NCBI GenBank assembly: GCA_947626095.1
Contig: CANQQV010000004.1
Location: forward strand, 32,001 to 96,000
Length of the DNA stretch: 64,000 nucleotides
Direction of reading: 5' to 3'
DNA from: an uncultured Bacilli bacterium
Lineage (GTDB): Bacteria > Bacillota_I > Bacilli_A > RF39 > UBA660
Positions 1,841 through 57,576 of this stretch are shown piece after piece; position 1 is the stretch's first letter; each line of letters opens with the position of its first letter. The position numbers were made by a program, and so were the translations under genes. The notes under the pieces were generated by a model. It was given only the letters and a program-made list of their open reading frames with translations. It was not told the origin of the DNA and ran no database searches.

Positions 1841-1878
1841 AAAAAAGGAAATAGGGGTAGTAATCGCGAATAATTAAA
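1841..1878 (+). promoter_or_regulatory. Putative alternative-sigma (SigH/ComX-type) competence promoter, copy 1
   Basis: AAAAAAGGAAAT-N10-ATCGCGAATAATTAAA upstream of comEA; same boxes and spacing at 54618-54655; AGGA/GAAT resembles SigH, CGAATA resembles the cin-box. Confidence 0.75.
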
Positions 1879-1896: not shown

Positions 1897-2646
1897 ATGA
1901 AAGATTTTTTAAAAGAACATATCGAAGAAATATTAATGGCAATAATCATTCTTTTAACTATTATTATAATTGTTATTATTGTCTTTGATATTAAACTTCC
2001 TAAAAAGGAAGAGGAGGTGAAAGAAAACAATAATGTTGCTTTAGTATCTAAAAAAGAAACTGAAGAACCAGAATCTGAAGAGACAGTTACTATAACTGAA
2101 GAACTAAAATATTATGTTGATATAAAAGGTGCTGTTAAAAAACCAGGAGTTTATGAAGTAGAGAAGGGAATGATTATCAATGATGTCATAAAACTAGCTG
2201 GTGGCTTAAAAAGCAACGCTTCAACTAAATATCTTAACTTAAGTAAACATGTAACTAACGAAATGGTCATTAACATTTTTACAACTACCGAAATCAAAGA
2301 ATTAGATGTCAAAGAAGAAACTGTTTGTTCATCATCAACAGCTGATATTAAAGATTGTGCTTCATCAACTATTGTTGAATCAAATGAACTACCAACTACA
2401 TCTTCACCATCTGATTCATCATCAGAAACGCCAAAAACCGAAACTCCAACTAATACTAAGATTAACATTAATACTGCTAGTTTAAACGAATTAATGAATA
2501 TATCTGGTATTGGTGAATCTAAAGCTCAAGCTATCATTGAGTATCGTAATACTAATGGTTTATTTAAAAGTATTGAAGATATAAAAAATGTTTCTGGTAT
2601 CGGAGACGCCCTATACGAAAAGATTAAAAATAGTATTACAATCTAA
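1897..2646 (+). CDS. comEA: Competence DNA receptor ComEA
   Basis: N-terminal TM, SLBB domain (YVDIKGAVKKPGVY), C-terminal HhH (KININTAS..EL..ISGIGESKA..II.YR). Confidence 0.95.
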   Translation: MKDFLKEHIEEILMAIIILLTIIIIVIIVFDIKLPKKEEEVKENNNVALVSKKETEEPESEETVTITEELKYYVDIKGAVKKPGVYEVEKGMIINDVIKLAGGLKSNASTKYLNLSKHVTNEMVINIFTTTEIKELDVKEETVCSSSTADIKDCASSTIVESNELPTTSSPSDSSSETPKTETPTNTKININTASLNELMNISGIGESKAQAIIEYRNTNGLFKSIEDIKNVSGIGDALYEKIKNSITI

Positions 2647-4681
2647 TATTTTTTATATCTTATGCTTTATTATCATTGCTATTTGGTGTCTTACTAATTA
2701 CACTGTTTTACAAAAAGATTCCATCTATAATCAAGATAATACTCAATTTACAATGACTATTACTGATTATAACTTTGATGGTAATAAACTATCATTAGAT
2801 CTAAAAGGTCAAGAAAACTTAGTCGGAACTTATTACATATCTACTAAAGAAGAACTTAATAATTTACAAGAGCAAATAAAATATGGCGTCGAAGTCGAGT
2901 TAGAAGGCGAGTTAAAAAAGCCGCTTAATAATACTATTCCTTATGCCTTCAACTATCAAAAGTATTTACTTAATAAAGACATTCATTATACTTTATCTAT
3001 CTCTAAAATTACTATTAAAAAGGAAGCAAATTTCTTTTACCAAATAAAAAATTGGGTTAATCAAAGAATTACTAAAATAGATTCATCAGGATATATGAAA
3101 GCTTTTATTCTTGGCGATAAAAACTTAATTTTAGATGATACATATTCTAATTATCAAAAGATTGGTATTACGCATTTATTCGCTTTATCTGGTATGCATA
3201 TTGGTTTATTTAGTGCTATTCTTTTAAGCCTTTTTAAAAAGTTTAAAGATCAAATAAAGTATCCTATCGTTATCATTATTTTAATTAGTTATGGTTTCTT
3301 AGTCGGTTATCCATCATCAATATTACGTTGTCTTACTTTTTTTACTTTAAATACGCTTAACAAACTATTTAATTTAAAAATAAGTTCAATCAAAGTTTTA
3401 TTCTTAACTATCTTTGTCATTCTACTAGGTAATTATCACTTACTTACTGATGTTGGTTTTATCTATTCCATAAGTAGTGTCGGAGGTTTACTTCTAAGTA
3501 CCGAATTTATTAAAAGTGATAGTAAATTATTACAAGCTTTAAAACTAAGTATTATTGCTTTTTTCTTTACTTTACCAATCTCCCTAAGTAACTTCTATGA
3601 AGTAAATATTTTTTCAATTATATATAATATCTTCTATATTCCTTATGTTAGTATGATTGTTTATCCTTTAGCTTTAATTAGTTTTATTTGTCCCTTTATC
3701 ATTCATATATTTAATTTATCTATAACTTTACTTGAATGGAGTAGTAGTATCTTAAATAATATTACTCTAGGTAACTTATATTTATCTTTTAATCAAATTG
3801 AAATAATTATTTATTATACTATTTTGTTACTGGCAATTATTAAAAAGAAATATATCTTATTTAGTTTATTATTTATTCTAATTATTATTGATCTTCAACT
3901 TCCATATTTTGATTCTAAAGCTTATATATACTTTTTAGATATTGGTCAAGGTGATTCATCACTTATTATTAGTCCATACCATAAAGATGTTATTATGATT
4001 GATACTGGTGGTATTGTAAGTTATAGTAAAGAAGAGTGGATGAAACGGGAAAGTGAATATATGGTTAGTGACAATGTTATTACTTTATTAAAAGCCTTAG
4101 GTATTAAAAAAATAAATCTTCTAGTTTTATCCCACGGGGACGCTGATCATGCTAAAGAAGTAACTAATATTTTAGAAGAAATAAATATCGCTTGTGTCAA
4201 AATAAATAATGGTGATTTAAGTAATTATGAAAAGATAGCTGTAGATAATATTAAAGAATGTAACTATCAACCTCATAATCTAGATTTAAGTTATTTAAAT
4301 TACAAAGATTATCACGATGAAAATGGTAATAGTCTTCTAAGTTATCTGCAAATATATAATACGAAAATAATATCTTTTGGCGATGCTACTAAAGAAGCCG
4401 AAAATGATATTATCAAAAAATATGATTTAAGTAATACGGATATCATTAAGCTATCTCATCATGGAAGTAAAACAAGTAGTAGTTATGAATATCTAAAAGA
4501 AGTAAATCCTAAAATAGCTATTATTAGTAGTGGCCGTAATAATCGTTTTAACCATCCCTCACAAGAAACAATCGATAATTTAAATAAACTTCAAATTCCC
4601 TATTTAAACACTCAACAATCTGGTACTATCGAGTTTATTATAAGTAAAAATGGTTATCAAAGAAAAATTTATGCCCCTTAA
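2588..4681 (+). CDS. comEC: DNA uptake channel ComEC/Rec2
   Basis: GITHLFALSGMHI competence domain; beta-lactamase-like domain DIGQGD, SHGDADH, HHGS, FNHP; follows comEA. Confidence 0.95.
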   Translation: MFLVSETPYTKRLKIVLQSNIFYILCFIIIAIWCLTNYTVLQKDSIYNQDNTQFTMTITDYNFDGNKLSLDLKGQENLVGTYYISTKEELNNLQEQIKYGVEVELEGELKKPLNNTIPYAFNYQKYLLNKDIHYTLSISKITIKKEANFFYQIKNWVNQRITKIDSSGYMKAFILGDKNLILDDTYSNYQKIGITHLFALSGMHIGLFSAILLSLFKKFKDQIKYPIVIIILISYGFLVGYPSSILRCLTFFTLNTLNKLFNLKISSIKVLFLTIFVILLGNYHLLTDVGFIYSISSVGGLLLSTEFIKSDSKLLQALKLSIIAFFFTLPISLSNFYEVNIFSIIYNIFYIPYVSMIVYPLALISFICPFIIHIFNLSITLLEWSSSILNNITLGNLYLSFNQIEIIIYYTILLLAIIKKKYILFSLLFILIIIDLQLPYFDSKAYIYFLDIGQGDSSLIISPYHKDVIMIDTGGIVSYSKEEWMKRESEYMVSDNVITLLKALGIKKINLLVLSHGDADHAKEVTNILEEINIACVKINNGDLSNYEKIAVDNIKECNYQPHNLDLSYLNYKDYHDENGNSLLSYLQIYNTKIISFGDATKEAENDIIKKYDLSNTDIIKLSHHGSKTSSSYEYLKEVNPKIAIISSGRNNRFNHPSQETIDNLNKLQIPYLNTQQSGTIEFIISKNGYQRKIYAP

Positions 4682-4744: not shown

Positions 4745-4772
4745 GAAAGAAGAATTTTCTTCTTTCTTTTTT
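4745..4772 (+). terminator. Intrinsic terminator downstream of comEC
   Basis: GAAAGAAG-AATTTT-CTTCTTTC plus T run. Confidence 0.75.
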
Positions 4773-4799: not shown

Positions 4800-5756
4800 A
4801 TGAGTAATATCTATCTAATTAGTTCAACAAGTCTTCATTTAATAAATGAAGAAATTAATAAAATAGTCAAAGATAATCAGTATACGACTTTTGACTTAAA
4901 CAATGTCTTAATTGATGATGTCTTAGAAGAAGCTTCATATTTCTCTTTATTTGATGATATTAAATATATTGTTTGTAAAAATGCTAATGTCTTTTCTACT
5001 AGTAAAAAAACTGATAGTGAAAATACTTTTTCCAAAAAAGATACGCGTTTACTAAAATATCTTGAAGAACCAAATCCTAAGACAGTTTTAATCTTTACTG
5101 TTAATGGCAAAGTTGATAGTAAAAAGAAAATAGTTAAAACTATTAAAGATCGTTATACGCTCATTGAAATCCCCGATTTAAAACCTAAAGAAATGTTTAC
5201 TAAAATAAATACTTTACTTAAAAAAGAACAATATACCATTGATAGTGATACCCTATATTACATTATTAATAATTGTCTCAATAATTACGATTTAATTATT
5301 AATGAATTAGATAAAATAAAATTATATTATCAAGATCAAAAAGTAATAAAATACGATGATGTTATAAATATCGTTAGTAAGAACCTAGAAGATAATAACT
5401 TTAAATTTATTGAAACTGTTATGAATAAAAACATTAAAGAATCTTTTAAAATATATGATGATTTAATGCTCCAAAAAGTTGAACCAGTTATGCTAATCAT
5501 CATGTTAACGAAAGAAATTAGAAATACGTTATTAGCTAAAATGATGAAAAATTATTCTCGCAGTGAAATAATGAAGCAACTAGGTTTATCATATGACTTT
5601 CAATTAGATAAGATTCTTAATTATACTAAGTTATATTCTAAAAAAGAATTAGAAGACTATCTCCTTTTAATTAGTGATTTTGATTATAAAATTAAAAGAG
5701 GGAAGATTAGTAATAAATTAGCTCTCCAAATGATTATAATGGATATGTGCAAATAA
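4800..5756 (+). CDS. holA: DNA polymerase III delta subunit
   Basis: SLF, YLEEPNPKTVLIF, NELDKI, D.KIKRG motifs; conserved position after comEC. Confidence 0.9.
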   Translation: MSNIYLISSTSLHLINEEINKIVKDNQYTTFDLNNVLIDDVLEEASYFSLFDDIKYIVCKNANVFSTSKKTDSENTFSKKDTRLLKYLEEPNPKTVLIFTVNGKVDSKKKIVKTIKDRYTLIEIPDLKPKEMFTKINTLLKKEQYTIDSDTLYYIINNCLNNYDLIINELDKIKLYYQDQKVIKYDDVINIVSKNLEDNNFKFIETVMNKNIKESFKIYDDLMLQKVEPVMLIIMLTKEIRNTLLAKMMKNYSRSEIMKQLGLSYDFQLDKILNYTKLYSKKELEDYLLLISDFDYKIKRGKISNKLALQMIIMDMCK

Positions 5757-54001: not shown

Positions 54002-54106
54002 TTCCATTCCTCCAATACTACTATATTTTATTAATTGACAGCCAAAATTATACATTTTATTTTACTATTTATTTAATTTATATTATTATATTAGTAGGTG
54101 ATTAAG

Positions 54107-54559
54107 ATGAAAAACTTCTTAAAGAAATATCAATTTGTTATTATTTTAACTTTACTATTAATTGTCTTATGTGTAGGCCCTAAACTAGTCTTTGCCGCTA
54201 CTTCATCTAAACTTAATTTTTGTCAATATCGCGGTACTAGAAGAGCTTTTAAAATCTTAGGTTTAGTTATTAATTTTATTAAAATCCTTGTTCCAATAAT
54301 TTTAATTATCACTGGTATTATGTCCTTAAGTAAAACTATCTTCTCCGGTAAAAGTGAAGATTTTACAGCCAGTTTAACACTTTTAGTTCGTAAATGTATT
54401 GCTGGTATTGTTATCTTCTTACTACCAACTGTTATTAATTATGCCTTTGATAGTTTAATTGGTTATAACGATGCCTCCTTTACTGCTTGTACTAGATGTA
54501 TGTTAACTCCAAATAACTGTCAAATACCTGATGAAGACCCCGACACTTATACTGATTAA
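54107..54559 (+). CDS. VirB2/TrbC pilin-like membrane protein
   Basis: Signal peptide (VFA), two hydrophobic helices around a charged loop (IKILVPIILII.G....K.I.SG..E; IAGIVIFLLP), flanking Cys residues. Confidence 0.5.
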   Translation: MKNFLKKYQFVIILTLLLIVLCVGPKLVFAATSSKLNFCQYRGTRRAFKILGLVINFIKILVPIILIITGIMSLSKTIFSGKSEDFTASLTLLVRKCIAGIVIFLLPTVINYAFDSLIGYNDASFTACTRCMLTPNNCQIPDEDPDTYTD

Positions 54560-54617
54560 TAAATGATTCTAACTCTAGAATCATTTTTTTGCTAAAAATT
54601 TAAAAAATTAACCAGAA

Positions 54618-54655
54618 AAAAAAGGAAATGACCCCCTTTATCGCGAATAATTAAA
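54618..54655 (+). promoter_or_regulatory. Putative alternative-sigma (SigH/ComX-type) competence promoter, copy 2
   Basis: AAAAAAGGAAAT-N10-ATCGCGAATAATTAAA, identical boxes and spacing to 1841-1878. Confidence 0.75.
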
Positions 54656-54670
54656 GTGAAGGGAGTAAAT

Positions 54671-56710
54671 ATGAAAAAAGATTATATAGTTAAACAAAAT
54701 GATATAAAAGATTGTGGCATATGTTCTTTAGAATCAATTATCAAGTATTATAATGGCTTTATTCCTTTAGAAACCTTACGTTTAGATACTAATACTAACG
54801 TAAATGGTACAACTGCTTACAACTTAATTAAAACCGCCAAAAAATATGGTTTTAGTGCCCAAGGTCAAAAAATAAAAGAACTAAATAATAACATTATCTT
54901 ACCAGCTATAGCTCATATTGTAACTGCTAAAGGTTTAAATCATTTCTTAGTAATCTATAAAATAACTGATAAATATGTCCTCGTTATGGATCCAGCTTAT
55001 GGTTATAAAAAGATTAATAAAAATGATTTTATAAAAGAATGGACAAACATTATTCTAATATTTAAACCATACAAACAAATACCTCTGTTTAAACTAAAAA
55101 ACAAACTAAAAACAATATTCATAGACATCATATCAAAAGAGAAAAAAATCATCTCTAAAATAATCGTTACTAATATCATCATAACCATTTTGTCCATTCT
55201 TATAAGTTACTATATCAAAACTATAACTACCATAATAGAAACTAATTATATCAATACTGCTTATCTTTTTATCATTATCTTTTTTATAATCAATATCTTA
55301 AAACTATATTACGATTATATAAAAAACGAACTGACTATCTATCTTAATAAAAATATAAATCTAAGGATTATTCCTGATTTTATCTATCATATTTTTAATC
55401 TCCCTTTAGATGTTATCAAATCTAGAACCACTGGTGAAATACTTACTAGAATTAACGAATTATTTAATATTAAAGAGTTATTCTCTGAAATATTTATAAC
55501 CATTATTTTAGATTTATTTCTTACTATTGGTTCAATCTATTTTCTTAATTCATTAAGTAGCGAATTATTTTTAATTCTTTGCATAATCGCTATTCTTTAT
55601 ATTTTAGTAGGACTCTTTACTAGTTCTATCATTGAGAAAAAGATTAATAATAACATCGATCTAGAAACGGAATTTAATTCTTGTTTGACCGAACATATTA
55701 ATAGTTTAGAATCAATTTCTAACTTAAGTTTAACTGATTATTATGAAAATAAAGTCGAAGAAAGTTATCTTTCTTATGAAAAAGATACATTTAAGTATTC
55801 TCTAACTTTAAATAATATTATAACTATTAAAAATGTTATAAATGAAATAGGTCTTTTTTTCATAACCAGTTATGGTATTTACTTAATAAGTATAAATAAA
55901 CTATCTATCTTAGGCTTAATAACCTTTAATAGCTTATTAACTTATTTTATAAATCCTATTGAAAATGTTATTGATTTATTACCTAAGTATCACTTAATTA
56001 AAACATCATTCAATAAAATATCTGAATTCTATAATATTGGCAAAATAGTTCAAGGAAATAATGAAAAGTTCAATAATGGTGATATCTCCTTCAAAAACAT
56101 TACTTATTATTACGATGATTTCCATAAAGTGTTAAAATCCCTAAACCTTCTTATCAAATGTCATTCTCATATCATGCTAAAAGGTCCTTCTGGATGTGGG
56201 AAGAGTACATTATGTAAAATATTAAATAAAACAATTAATAATTATAGTGGTGAAGTAAAAATCGATAATATCAACATTAAAGATTATTCATTAAGTACAA
56301 TTAAGAAAAATATTTTATATGTATCCCAAACTGAAAGTATTTTCTCTGATACTATTAAAAATAATATTACGTTAAATAGATATGTAAGTCCTAAAGAGTT
56401 AAATGAAGTTCTAGAAATTACTAAAGTTAATGAAATAATTGCTAAAAAATCATTGCGTTTAGATTCGTTTCTATATGATAGCGGCTACAACTTAAGTGGT
56501 GGTGAAAGGCAAAGAATAATCTTAGCTAGGTCCCTTCTTAAGAAACCTAAAATTCTTATTTTAGATGAATCTCTAAGTGAGATGGATACTGATTTAGAAA
56601 CCGAGATATTATCAAACATCGATCATTATTTAAAAGATACAACTGTAATCTATATATCCCATACTAATAATAATTATTTTAAGACAGTTTACGAAATGGA
56701 GTTAGTATGA
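54671..56710 (+). CDS. Peptidase-containing ABC transporter (C39 + TMD + NBD), ComA/bacteriocin exporter type
   Basis: Q....DCG, H.LV, MDPA; GPSGCGKS, LSGGERQR, LILDE, ISH. Confidence 0.95.
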   Translation: MKKDYIVKQNDIKDCGICSLESIIKYYNGFIPLETLRLDTNTNVNGTTAYNLIKTAKKYGFSAQGQKIKELNNNIILPAIAHIVTAKGLNHFLVIYKITDKYVLVMDPAYGYKKINKNDFIKEWTNIILIFKPYKQIPLFKLKNKLKTIFIDIISKEKKIISKIIVTNIIITILSILISYYIKTITTIIETNYINTAYLFIIIFFIINILKLYYDYIKNELTIYLNKNINLRIIPDFIYHIFNLPLDVIKSRTTGEILTRINELFNIKELFSEIFITIILDLFLTIGSIYFLNSLSSELFLILCIIAILYILVGLFTSSIIEKKINNNIDLETEFNSCLTEHINSLESISNLSLTDYYENKVEESYLSYEKDTFKYSLTLNNIITIKNVINEIGLFFITSYGIYLISINKLSILGLITFNSLLTYFINPIENVIDLLPKYHLIKTSFNKISEFYNIGKIVQGNNEKFNNGDISFKNITYYYDDFHKVLKSLNLLIKCHSHIMLKGPSGCGKSTLCKILNKTINNYSGEVKIDNINIKDYSLSTIKKNILYVSQTESIFSDTIKNNITLNRYVSPKELNEVLEITKVNEIIAKKSLRLDSFLYDSGYNLSGGERQRIILARSLLKKPKILILDESLSEMDTDLETEILSNIDHYLKDTTVIYISHTNNNYFKTVYEMELV

Positions 56711-57120
56711 TTAATAAAATAATATTCCTTAACCTTACGCCCAAAAAGCATTTATTTATCTATTCTATATCTATTACTTGCATATTCATAATAGGACTCC
56801 TTTCTTCAAAATTAAAAACATACGATTCCTACTATGTAACTGGCTTAGTATCTTGTGATAAAAATTGTAGTATTACGGTATCTTTTCCCTATGATAAAGT
56901 TGATATTTTAAAAGAAAATCCTCACATTGAATATCTAAACAAAGAATACGAAATAACTTCTATTATTTATAGTGAACCATATTTAAACGATCAAATCCCT
57001 TACGAAGATATCAAGCTAATAACTGATCTTCAAAGTGCAGATCCAATAATTAACTTTAAAATTTTATATAATAAGCAAAGAATAATATCCAAAATAAAAA
57101 ATATAGTCAAAGGAGAATAA
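56707..57120 (+). CDS. Short transport accessory protein (truncated ComB/HlyD-like)
   Basis: Overlaps transporter stop; one N-terminal TM then beta-rich domain; only 137 aa. Confidence 0.55.
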   Translation: MINKIIFLNLTPKKHLFIYSISITCIFIIGLLSSKLKTYDSYYVTGLVSCDKNCSITVSFPYDKVDILKENPHIEYLNKEYEITSIIYSEPYLNDQIPYEDIKLITDLQSADPIINFKILYNKQRIISKIKNIVKGE

Positions 57121-57121
57121 A

Positions 57122-57280
57122 ATGGAACTAACAAACGAAGAATTAAAAGCAGTTGACGGTGGCAGTTTAAAAGTAACTGTTGGTGGTGTCTTATTAGCTG
57201 TTGGAAGCGCCGCAGTTTTTGCCTTAGGTCTATTAAAAGGAGTAATGGGTAGTCCAACATGCTCATTAAAAGGAAAGTAG
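57122..57280 (+). CDS. Double-glycine leader peptide A (52 aa), class IIb bacteriocin-like
   Basis: AGGAG RBS; MELTNEELKAVDGG|SLKVTVGGVLLAVGSAAVFALGLLKGVMGSPTCSLKGK; not in ORF track. Confidence 0.88.
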   Translation: MELTNEELKAVDGGSLKVTVGGVLLAVGSAAVFALGLLKGVMGSPTCSLKGK

Positions 57281-57287
57281 GTGAATT

Positions 57288-57440
57288 ATGACTAACGAAG
57301 AGTTATTAAATGTTCAAGGTGGTAGCATTAGTGCATCACTTCTAAATGCTATTGCTAGAGGTGCAGAAGTACTATATAACATCGGCTCATCACTAGGTAA
57401 ATGTATTAGATTATTTATTAGTGGCAAAAAATGTAACTAG
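57288..57440 (+). CDS. Double-glycine leader peptide B (50 aa), class IIb bacteriocin-like
   Basis: AGGTGA RBS; MTNEELLNVQGG|SISASLLNAIARGAEVLYNIGSSLGKCIRLFISGKKCN; not in ORF track. Confidence 0.88.
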   Translation: MTNEELLNVQGGSISASLLNAIARGAEVLYNIGSSLGKCIRLFISGKKCN

Positions 57441-57443
57441 TAA

Positions 57444-57468
57444 AGGAAGAGAGTAATCTCTTCTTTTA
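57444..57468 (+). terminator. Intrinsic terminator closing the peptide-export operon
   Basis: GAAGAGA-GTAA-TCTCTTC plus T run. Confidence 0.8.
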
Positions 57469-57576
57469 TTATTTAGTAAAAAATGTCGAAAATATAACGA
57501 ATAATACTCTTTTTTCCCTTGTCAAGGCATTTATGAAGTGTTATAATCATTTATAGTTATGAAGGGAGGGAAATTT

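Follow-up and report, generated by a model that had tools for sequence, protein, structure and literature searches.

The DNA-uptake operon comEA-comEC and an operon encoding a peptide exporter with two double-glycine (GG) leader peptides were found to be preceded by the same bipartite promoter motif in a 64,000-nt stretch of DNA from an uncultured Bacilli bacterium (G000:C4:32001-96000, hereafter the window, meaning the whole stretch that was analysed). The boxes of this motif match promoters of the sigma-H type, and sequence comparison supports the view that it behaves as a SigH-family promoter common to the two operons; the SigH-family factor encoded in the genome probably reads both of these focal promoters and indeed all 12 sites of the kind detected genome-wide. 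The source genome (G000; 1.6 Mb in 34 contigs, about 27% G+C) is 91% complete with 7.9% contamination; it and the genomes with which it was compared are of metagenome-assembled genome grade, and genes are therefore reported below as not found rather than as absent.

A promoter motif shared by two operons

The motif is 38 nt long, AAAAAAGGAAAT-N10-ATCGCGAATAATTAAA, and occurs in exact form on the + strand at 1841-1878 and 54618-54655; when up to three mismatches are allowed, the window yields no third site, and none of 100 dinucleotide-preserving shuffles yields any. The 10-nt spacers of the two sites are unlike (AGGGGTAGTA and GACCCCCTTT), 18 nt separate the end of the motif from the start codon of comEA (ATG at 1897) and 15 nt from that of the exporter (ATG at 54671), and each site follows a terminator-like hairpin and T-run that close the upstream gene (1801-1826 and 54562-54590). 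Between this hairpin and the start codon no sigma-70-like site was called on the + strand at either focal site, and no homology between their flanks was seen in the sequence read beyond the two boxes. The initial annotation, which had described identical boxes with differing spacers 15-18 nt before the start codons and had named the downstream genes as comEA, comEC, a C39-ABC exporter and two GG-leader peptides, is borne out on both counts, domain matches and translations agreeing with the names.

The consensus of Bacillus subtilis sigma-H promoters, RNAGGAWWW, 11-12 nt and RNNGAAT, points the same way. In Listeria monocytogenes, RNA-seq under sigH over-expression gave six sigma-H promoters with a -35 element AAAGGA(A/T)TT, an 11-nt spacer and a -10 element GGCGAAT, CGCGAAT in one species; the units behind them are comEABC, at a distance of 22 nt, comG, coiA and LMRG_00908-dnaG-rpoD (Liu et al. 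2016, PMC4754846). The system described here is alike in its -35 element, its CGCGAAT-type -10 element, a comEA promoter about 20 nt from the gene, a small regulon and a promoter before the gene that heads a primase and sigma factor operon, dnaG-rpoD there and adhesin-dnaG-sigA here (PMC4754846).

A position weight matrix (PWM) built from the copies returned 12 distinct sites of at least 27 bits in the source genome, the next distinct site scoring 21 bits and the reversed-sequence control giving nothing above 25 bits; both focal promoters reach 35.0 bits, that of comEA equalling the top score in the genome. All 12 lie upstream of a gene on the same strand, with a Shine-Dalgarno sequence (SD) and a start codon 14-25 nt past GAATAAT in ten cases and leaders of about 70 nt in two. 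The -35 element, of the form AAAGGAWWT, reads AAAGGAAAT in all 12 strong sites (ten as AAAAAAGGAAAT, two as AATAAAGGAAAT), and the -10 element, of the form (R/G)NNGAAT, stands 11-12 nt from it, as CGCGAAT at both focal sites and as CGC-, AGC-, AGA- or CAC-GAAT at the other ten. The focal pair is also the only one with 12 nt between AGGAAAT and CGCGAAT, the spacing being 11 nt elsewhere. Besides comEA-comEC and the exporter operon, the sites precede seven paralogues of a 280-300-aa Rpn-like protein, a thioester-domain/SpaA adhesin gene heading dnaG-sigA, a 143-aa gene heading radC-mreC-mreD, and a pair of genes for an ABC (ATP-binding cassette) ATPase and an ABC-2 permease.

A compositional feature of the spacers may be recorded here: over the 12 sites the first 6 nt are 45% G+C and the remaining spacer 24%, in a genome of about 27%, and at the focal sites these first six bases are AGGGGT (spacer 1853-1864) and GACCCC (spacer 54630-54641), which are partly complementary to each other.

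The candidate sigma factor

A homologue of SigH or ComX had been sought in the genome, and one SigH-family gene was found, at G000:C25:8703-9302, outside the window. Its 204-aa product aligns over its full length (positions 1-198) to TIGR02859 with 115 bits, and all of its best NCBIfam matches are SigH/PRK08295 models. The gene order is mrnC-like, rlmB, sigH, secE, nusG, and the interval between rlmB and secE-nusG is what we take to be the canonical position of sigH in Bacilli; the gene is single-copy in 27 of 27 genus genomes. Since the other sigma genes of the source genome are those for SigA, SigE, SigF, SigG, SigK and a 1219-aa RpoD-like fusion, the SigH-like protein is the sole candidate among ordinary alternative sigma factors not devoted to sporulation. 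The original suggestion of a sigma-factor promoter thus agrees with the Listeria sigma-H promoters, with the presence of an encoded SigH orthologue, and with the genus-wide architecture and co-varying -10 blocks described in the next section.

If this 204-aa factor recognises both focal promoters, RNA polymerase would initiate a few bases past CGCGAATAAT, and by analogy with the ComX motif, in which the transcription start site (TSS) lies 7 nt past CGAATA, the start sites would be expected near 1880-1881 and 54657-54658, with leaders of about 13-16 nt. Two short-leadered mRNAs would result, one for comEA-comEC and one for the peptidase-containing ABC transporter (PCAT), a 137-aa protein, peptide A and peptide B, after which the PCAT would remove the GG leaders and export both peptides. 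About ten other units would also be induced (Rpn-like nuclease and surface-protein genes, adhesin-dnaG-sigA, radC-mreCD and the ABC-2 transporter), and if the SigH orthologue reads all 12 sites, DNA-channel genes, exporter and peptides, Rpn-like genes and the rest would be induced together.

Two neighbouring matters of sigma factors and sporulation control deserve mention. The first ~290 residues of the 1219-aa protein (G000:C19:8456-12115, - strand) form a full RpoD-like sigma domain (TIGR02393, 209 bits) followed by ~900 residues, and the protein also resembles the MzaA anti-phage sigma model. The Spo0A homologue (G000:C10:31670-32450, - strand) is aligned by the Spo0A model only over the C-terminal DNA-binding half (118-259) and not over the receiver half, and the region upstream of its gene holds a 0A-box-like TCGACAA/GTCGTAA.

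Conservation and co-variation of the promoters

The genus sample comprised the source genome and genomes of 26 other species. comEA was found in 25 of these 26 relatives, with identity up to 71%, and in each of the 24 upstream regions read (the source genome included) A(A/G)AGG(A/G)WWW is separated by about 12 nt from a -10 block, which an SD follows. The exporter, found in 23 of the 26 (E <= 1e-60), is more conserved than comEA, with identity up to 84%, and all 20 relatives in which its 5' end is intact have AAAGGAWWW, 11 or 12 nt, a 14-nt block, (G/T/A)TGAAGGGAG and the ATG upstream; conservation before the exporter, one of the checks proposed at the outset, is therefore seen at the level of architecture in 20 of 20 cases. 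What is conserved is this architecture and not the letters, the boxes being present with species-specific -10 letters. The exact motif of the source genome (AGGAAAT-N13-14-CGAATAAT) was also tried as a test of conservation, and the seeming non-conservation that it gave was dropped after the orthologous upstream regions had been read. With a species-adjusted pattern, five relatives gave 6, 6, 5, 5 and 2 sites, as against 0-1 in the control, located before comEA in all five genomes, before the exporter in four (in the fifth the exporter has its promoter, without the letters of the pattern), before the adhesin gene in four, directly before dnaG in one and before Rpn-like genes at four sites. A few further sites precede genes judged by eye to encode putative phage-type DNA-binding proteins, and three matches inside genes look like chance.

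Beyond the genus, the exporter was detected in 17 genomes (E <= 1e-90) of a class-wide sample of 200, and 13 of these 17 are among the 20 same-family genomes sampled, all belonging to other genera. GG peptides follow the exporter in 14 of the 17 loci, as a pair in 13; the three exceptions are 2-3.6 Mb genomes of two other families, with long HlyD-type accessory genes instead. An AGGA-type box and a -10-like block were recognised by eye upstream of about ten of the 14 loci with GG peptides. comEA was located in five of these other genera, with an AGGA-type box in four and a sigma-A-like promoter in the fifth, and in one genome (G223) the same unusual pair, GGGAAAA...AGGAAATAT, stands at both the comEA and the exporter promoter.

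The -10 block differs between species (CGCGAATAAT, CTAGAATATA, GGAGAATATA, CTAGTAAATA, GGATAATAAT, GGCTAATAAG and AGCTAAAATA, among others), reading for example CGCGAAT in the source genome, GGATAAT in G001 and GCTAAAAT in G011, and within one species the comEA and exporter operons have the same block. When the 13-nt -10 blocks of the two operons were compared in register, agreement was 10.81 positions within a genome and 8.25 between genomes, the within-genome mean being reached by none of 20000 permutations, and orthologous promoters across genomes agreed at 8.08 (comEA) and 8.49 (exporter) of the 13 positions. The spacers show no real gain (3.24 of 10 positions within genomes, 2.98 of 10 between). 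One comEA promoter mislocated by the rule (G041) was kept, which makes the test conservative. This in-register comparison replaced an unanchored best-match test, in which the AT-rich background was high (self 12.0 vs 10.25 of 14) and self ranked top, ties included, in 12 of 21 cases. Boxes that change together around a free spacer are what a shared trans-acting reader predicts, and not what is predicted by wholesale gene conversion of the stretch.

Genes of the two operons

The coordinates of the features of both operons are collected in Table 1. The PCAT is recognised by three Pfam domains above their cut-offs and scores 378 bits with TIGR01193, below the cut-off of 523.85; its translation contains QNDIKDCGIC with the DCG catalytic motif, the Walker A sequence GPSGCGKST and the ABC signature LSGGERQR. 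Both peptides are GG-leader peptides with GxxxG, encoded next to each other as is usual for class IIb bacteriocins, and have mature parts of 35-40 aa, hydrophobic or amphipathic. Peptide A scores 24.6 bits with the class IIb lactobin A/cerein 7B family TIGR03949, above the cut-off of 21.5, and 20.3 bits with PF10439, below the cut-off of 27.1, with which peptide B also remains below the same cut-off (18.6 bits). From GxxxG and the family match, peptides A and B together most likely make up a class IIb, membrane-active two-peptide bacteriocin. The pair is conserved across the genus and family: in 38 loci a pattern search picked out 22 A peptides and 21 B peptides, and at least 90% of these peptides keep the L..EL....GG leader, GxxxG and a single Cys near the C-terminus.

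Table 1. Features of the two focal operons and of their borders in the window
Feature	Position	Strand	Remarks
Sigma-H-type promoter of comEA-comEC	1841..1878	+	-35 AAAGGAAAT (1844-1852), 12-nt spacer, -10 CGCGAAT (1865-1871), then AATTAAA
comEA, DNA receptor, 249 aa	1897..2646	+	Pfam SLBB 3.2e-12, HHH_3 9.7e-23
comEC open reading frame (ORF), DNA channel, metallo-beta-lactamase domain, 697 aa as listed	2588..4681	+	Pfam Competence 7.4e-40, DUF4131, Lactamase_B
Terminator-like hairpin and T-run	4745..4766	+	Ends the comEA-comEC unit before holA
holA	4800-5756		Behind the terminator
Sigma-H-type promoter of the peptide-export operon	54618..54655	+	-35 AAAGGAAAT, 12-nt spacer, -10 CGCGAAT
PCAT (C39 peptidase, ABC membrane domain, ATPase)	54671..56710	+	Pfam Peptidase_C39 8.4e-33, ABC_membrane 4.7e-28, ABC_tran 8.9e-27
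Single-pass membrane protein, 137 aa	56707..57120	+	Small beta-barrel, largely conserved CxxxC
GG-leader peptide A, 52 aa	57122..57280	+	Leader MELTNEELKAVDGG; hydrophobic mature part, GxxxG, one Cys near the C-terminus
GG-leader peptide B, 50 aa	57288..57440	+	Leader MTNEELLNVQGG; mature part ..NA..G...G.., C-terminal Cys
Terminator-like hairpin ending the operon	57438..57471	+	RNA fold -17.8 kcal/mol, z = -2.98
Sigma-70-like promoter of rpsU	57519-57547		Matches 11/12 positions, has TG

The 137-aa protein encoded between exporter and peptides, which is kept in 17 of 20 genus relatives, has no NCBIfam match and no Pfam match even at E <= 10. Its AlphaFold model (predicted local distance difference test score, pLDDT, 87) consists of one transmembrane helix, a small beta-barrel and a C-terminal helix and gave no matches against the PDB at E <= 0.001, and where its language-model (Atlas) neighbours carry a family name, they belong to LcnD_C/ComB-like clusters and reach only 0.85-0.86. 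Our best guess is a minimal export accessory protein, an immunity protein being the alternative. In the surroundings of the operon, rpsU is the next listed gene in 11 of 20 relatives, and a membrane protein of 145-200 aa precedes the exporter promoter in 15 of 20. The corresponding protein in the window (153 aa; 54098-54559, + strand) has a signal peptide, a Cys-rich tail and a terminator of its own and forms a separate unit; the sole lead on its nature is a T4SS-pilin/TrbC-like (type IV secretion system) neighbour at 0.89 in the Atlas, and it is a possible immunity protein.

As regards comEC, its ORF overlaps comEA and its true start may accordingly lie further 3' than listed.

The competence question

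The initial annotation went further than a shared promoter, in that it envisaged a competence regulon in which DNA uptake and peptide secretion are co-induced, and predicted the motif before other com operons. In the source genome it was found before none of comGA, comFA, dprA, ssb and recA; of the classical com genes, only comEA-comEC carry it, and seven of the 12 sites precede Rpn-like genes. The gene for a T2SSE ATPase, the sole one adjoining a prepilin peptidase, has a sigma-A-like promoter (TTGAGT-17-TATAAT) without AGGA and GAAT boxes, and a late com regulon with comG, comE, comF, dprA, coiA and ssbB under a common promoter was thus not seen. In addition, searches of this 91% complete genome for comF (TIGR00201), CoiA (PF06054) and the prepilin signal (TIGR02532) gave nothing, and DprA (PF02481) was found in none of the 27 genomes of the genus, the source genome among them, and in only one of the 61 sampled from the family. 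By the criterion set at the outset the competence-regulon framing fails, whereas the weaker part of the proposal, in which one sigma factor serves both the DNA channel and the peptide exporter, stands. DprA is a near-universal transformation protein, and its not being found across a lineage that keeps comEA and comEC is an observation in its own right.

Evidence against the proposed regulation

Several observations weigh against a SigH-dependent regulon with a bacteriocin in it. The 115 bits of the SigH-like protein compare with a curated cut-off of 294.8, and all of its NCBIfam matches are below cut-off; since the score is so far under the curated cut-offs, SigH orthology rests on synteny and on the best-hit family. 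A sigma-H-type motif was not found upstream of spo0A in the source genome, and spo0A is a classical sigma-H target in spore formers. The pattern of the exact motif, which has 11 matches in the source genome, occurs at most once in any of 40 relatives. No simple residue-to-base match was found between SigH region 2.4 and the -10 class, this region being almost the same in G023 (GAAT), G018 (TAAT) and G013 (GTAA), and because the class tracks no simple substitution there the co-variation cannot yet be pinned on the SigH-like factor. Gene conversion between copies is another source from which the likeness within a genome might in principle arise, and similar spacers do occur in certain other pairs of sites, e.g., those of comEA and the adhesin gene in G003, G010 and G023. 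On the side of the peptides, no immunity gene was identified, the candidate 137-aa and 153-aa proteins matching no known immunity family, and a family-wide conserved locus is unusual for a bacteriocin.

Alternative explanations

It is possible, if somewhat doubtful, that the same promoter and sigma factor serve a stationary-phase or pre-sporulation programme in which the peptides are a developmental signal or a cannibalism-type toxin and comEA-comEC is one target among many; B. subtilis offers parallels in its Phr peptides, linked to sigma-H and Spo0A, and in Skf and Sdp. Such a programme is favoured by the sporulation genes that adjoin the exporter operon in the window and by the encoded Spo0A, SigE/F/G/K, SpoIIIAH, GerM and SpoIVB, as well as by the missing remainder of the com machinery; the peptides and exporter are, moreover, inherited vertically as core genes, present in 23 of 26 genus relatives and in 13 of the 20 other genera of the family that were sampled, often beside rpsU, which is more in keeping with a physiological signal than with a weapon that varies between strains. 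However, the list of ORFs at the exporter locus contains no receptor, whether a histidine kinase or an Rgg/RNPP-type regulator, the mature peptides have the size and GxxxG of pore-forming class IIb pairs, spo0A lacks the motif, and many of the family members that bear the operon have genomes of 0.8-1.3 Mb.

The two other explanations that were considered fit the data poorly. It appears highly improbable that the motif is a transcription-factor operator laid over a weak sigma-A promoter with AATAAT as its -10 element: GAATAAT does hold AATAAT (5/6 match to TATAAT), the conserved block reaches the SD (GTGAAGGGAG) and is longer than a typical -10 element, and the G+C-richer 5' part of the spacer (45% vs 24%) could mark an operator, but the hexamer 17 nt upstream of AATAAT is AGGAAA, which agrees with TTGACA at 3/6 positions, no sigma-70 site was called, no ComK-type or other candidate factor came to light, none having been looked for, and an invariant AGGA at a fixed distance from GAAT is the signature of Listeria sigma-H promoters. 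It is hardly credible that the copies stem from a promoter cassette spread in recent times by duplication or gene conversion, perhaps along with the Rpn-like and surface-protein repeats, so that the identity of the focal sites would be historical and not regulatory. In favour of this, a repeated gene family accounts for seven of the 12 sites, three of them with an identical spacer, and the letters of the source genome recur in no relative. Against it, the two focal sites are found, with unchanged architecture, at orthologous places in some 20 further species and in other genera, the spacer of one bears no relation to that of the other, and AGGA/GAAT-type boxes with free spacers over such depth would be left unexplained.

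Comparison with known systems

The closest precedent for a SigH-family promoter shared by these two operons appears to be the pneumococcal sigma factor ComX (sigma-X), whose direct targets include comEA-comEC, radC and the genes of a two-peptide bacteriocin, cibAB, together with the immunity gene cibC (Slager et al. 2019, PMC6560143). Both systems would thus use one sigma factor of the SigH/ComX group for comEA-comEC, radC and a GG-leader two-peptide bacteriocin, and the focal motif has the core CGAATA in common with the ComX motif, TTTTTNHNNNYTHTTMCGAATADWNWRRD-[TSS] (PMC6560143). The differences are considerable. The ComX cin-box consists of a T-rich stretch and MCGAATA about 7 nt before the TSS, without an AGGA -35 element, whereas in the focal motif CGAATA is preceded by G, not by A or C, and a conserved AGGA box is present, and the motif, although it would act like a cin-box, is not classed as one here; the transporter of cibAB is encoded elsewhere and there is an immunity gene, whereas exporter and peptides here form one operon; and the pneumococcal regulon has dprA, comG, comF and coiA, whereas DprA was not found in the lineage studied here (PMC6560143). 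SigX of Streptococcus mutans has likewise been reported to control bacteriocins and competence (PMC4497675). In Staphylococcus aureus, SigH drives the comG and comE operons (Morikawa et al. 2012, PMC3486894), which is alike in that a SigH-family factor specifically transcribes the comE operon, and a link to bacteriocins is not described in the excerpted account. Listeria sigma-H differs in also driving comG and coiA, which here were either not found or lack the motif, in that no bacteriocin or PCAT operon is reported in the excerpts of that study, and in that the -10 letters of the present regulon drift between species (PMC4754846).

Class IIb bacteriocins with a dedicated PCAT (lactobin A/cerein 7B, TIGR03949) are alike in the adjacent pair of GG-leader GxxxG peptides beside a C39-ABC exporter. 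They differ from the present locus, which is a syntenic core set across a small-genome family and not strain-variable, has a single C-terminal Cys in both peptides and an accessory protein of only ~137 aa, and shows no recognised immunity gene. With the regulon of B. subtilis sigma-H (Spo0H) there are parallels in that its sigA operon P3, mreBCD-minCD and phr genes correspond to the dnaG-sigA and radC-mreCD sites described here, the difference being that the com genes of B. subtilis depend on ComK and not directly on sigma-H.

SigH-type promoters before comE are therefore already known, as is the coupling of competence genes to a two-peptide bacteriocin by a sigma factor in streptococci. New are their combination in an uncultured small-genome family of Bacilli, with exporter and peptides in one sigma-H-type operon as a core locus, the coexistence of this with family-wide loss of DprA, and a -10 element that drifts in concert through the regulon between species. 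A description of such a SigH-type circuit was not found in the open-access literature searched (supplements excluded); the matches listed concern streptococci and, in one case, Treponema denticola, and the term 'sigma H' occurs in none of those listed.

The peptides may act in killing neighbours for their DNA or as a pheromone, and the purpose that we favour is neighbour lysis coupled to DNA uptake, a programme rendered plausible by the precedents of pneumococcal ComX and S. mutans SigX. As DprA is missing family-wide, the uptake of DNA may serve nucleotide supply and not classical transformation, as has been proposed for other reduced-genome bacteria (PMC8513845). A still broader picture, which we offer as unlikely to hold as a whole, would be that small-genome (0.8-2.4 Mb) gut Bacilli lost DprA and most transformation genes and kept, under one SigH-type sigma factor, a core two-peptide toxin with its exporter, ComEA/ComEC and nucleases as a module to lyse neighbours and import their DNA as food, with the -10 elements drifting in step regulon-wide through co-evolution of sigma factor and promoters.

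Such co-evolution, if true, would be an example from nature of promoters and their sigma factor evolving together. The matched drift of -10 elements in unrelated promoters of one genome is in any case a clean natural data set on the evolution of sigma specificity. The proposed circuit extends to a distant lineage, with a SigH-type promoter, the streptococcal principle that a competence sigma factor induces a two-peptide bacteriocin as well, and provides, for bacteria known from metagenomes only, a concrete and testable regulon that comprises a single sigma factor, some dozen promoters and two conserved peptides that are secreted. In gut communities these peptides and their exporter may form a conserved system of interference or signalling, and the question is raised of what role ComEA/ComEC play where DprA is absent from a whole family.

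Other members of the proposed regulon

The Rpn-like proteins gave 40.8 and 45.4 bits with TIGR01784 in the two cases tested, below the cut-off of 52.1, and are of the PD-(D/E)XK type. Most of the paralogues are followed by a gene for a large surface protein without a Pfam match; the copy on contig C15 is followed by housekeeping genes and that on C7 runs off the contig. Three of the seven sites of this family have an identical spacer. The loci lie outside the window (G000:C19:1-4400, C8:36400-37550, C21:1-5320, C24:227-2300, C7:82368-end and C15:24048-25006), the cassettes occur in tandem and at contig ends, and the neighbouring surface proteins end in a common C-terminal anchor (..LSAIGASVVSVRKLRN). 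Taken together, they resemble a system in which variable surface proteins are coupled with recombination nucleases.

The leader of the adhesin gene (G000:C8:35170-35270, - strand) contains, directly after an SD, a two-codon mini-ORF (ATG, one codon, stop), with the real start 60-100 nt further 3', and this mini-ORF was found in all five species read, namely the source genome and the orthologous sites of G003, G005, G010 and G023 (loci L124, L140, L147 and L125). Directly before dnaG, at G000:C8:33507 (- strand), a second site combines a sigma-H-like -35 element (AAAAAAGGAAAT) with a TATAAT-type -10 element, and a full sigma-H-type site stands at the same dnaG position in the relative G014.

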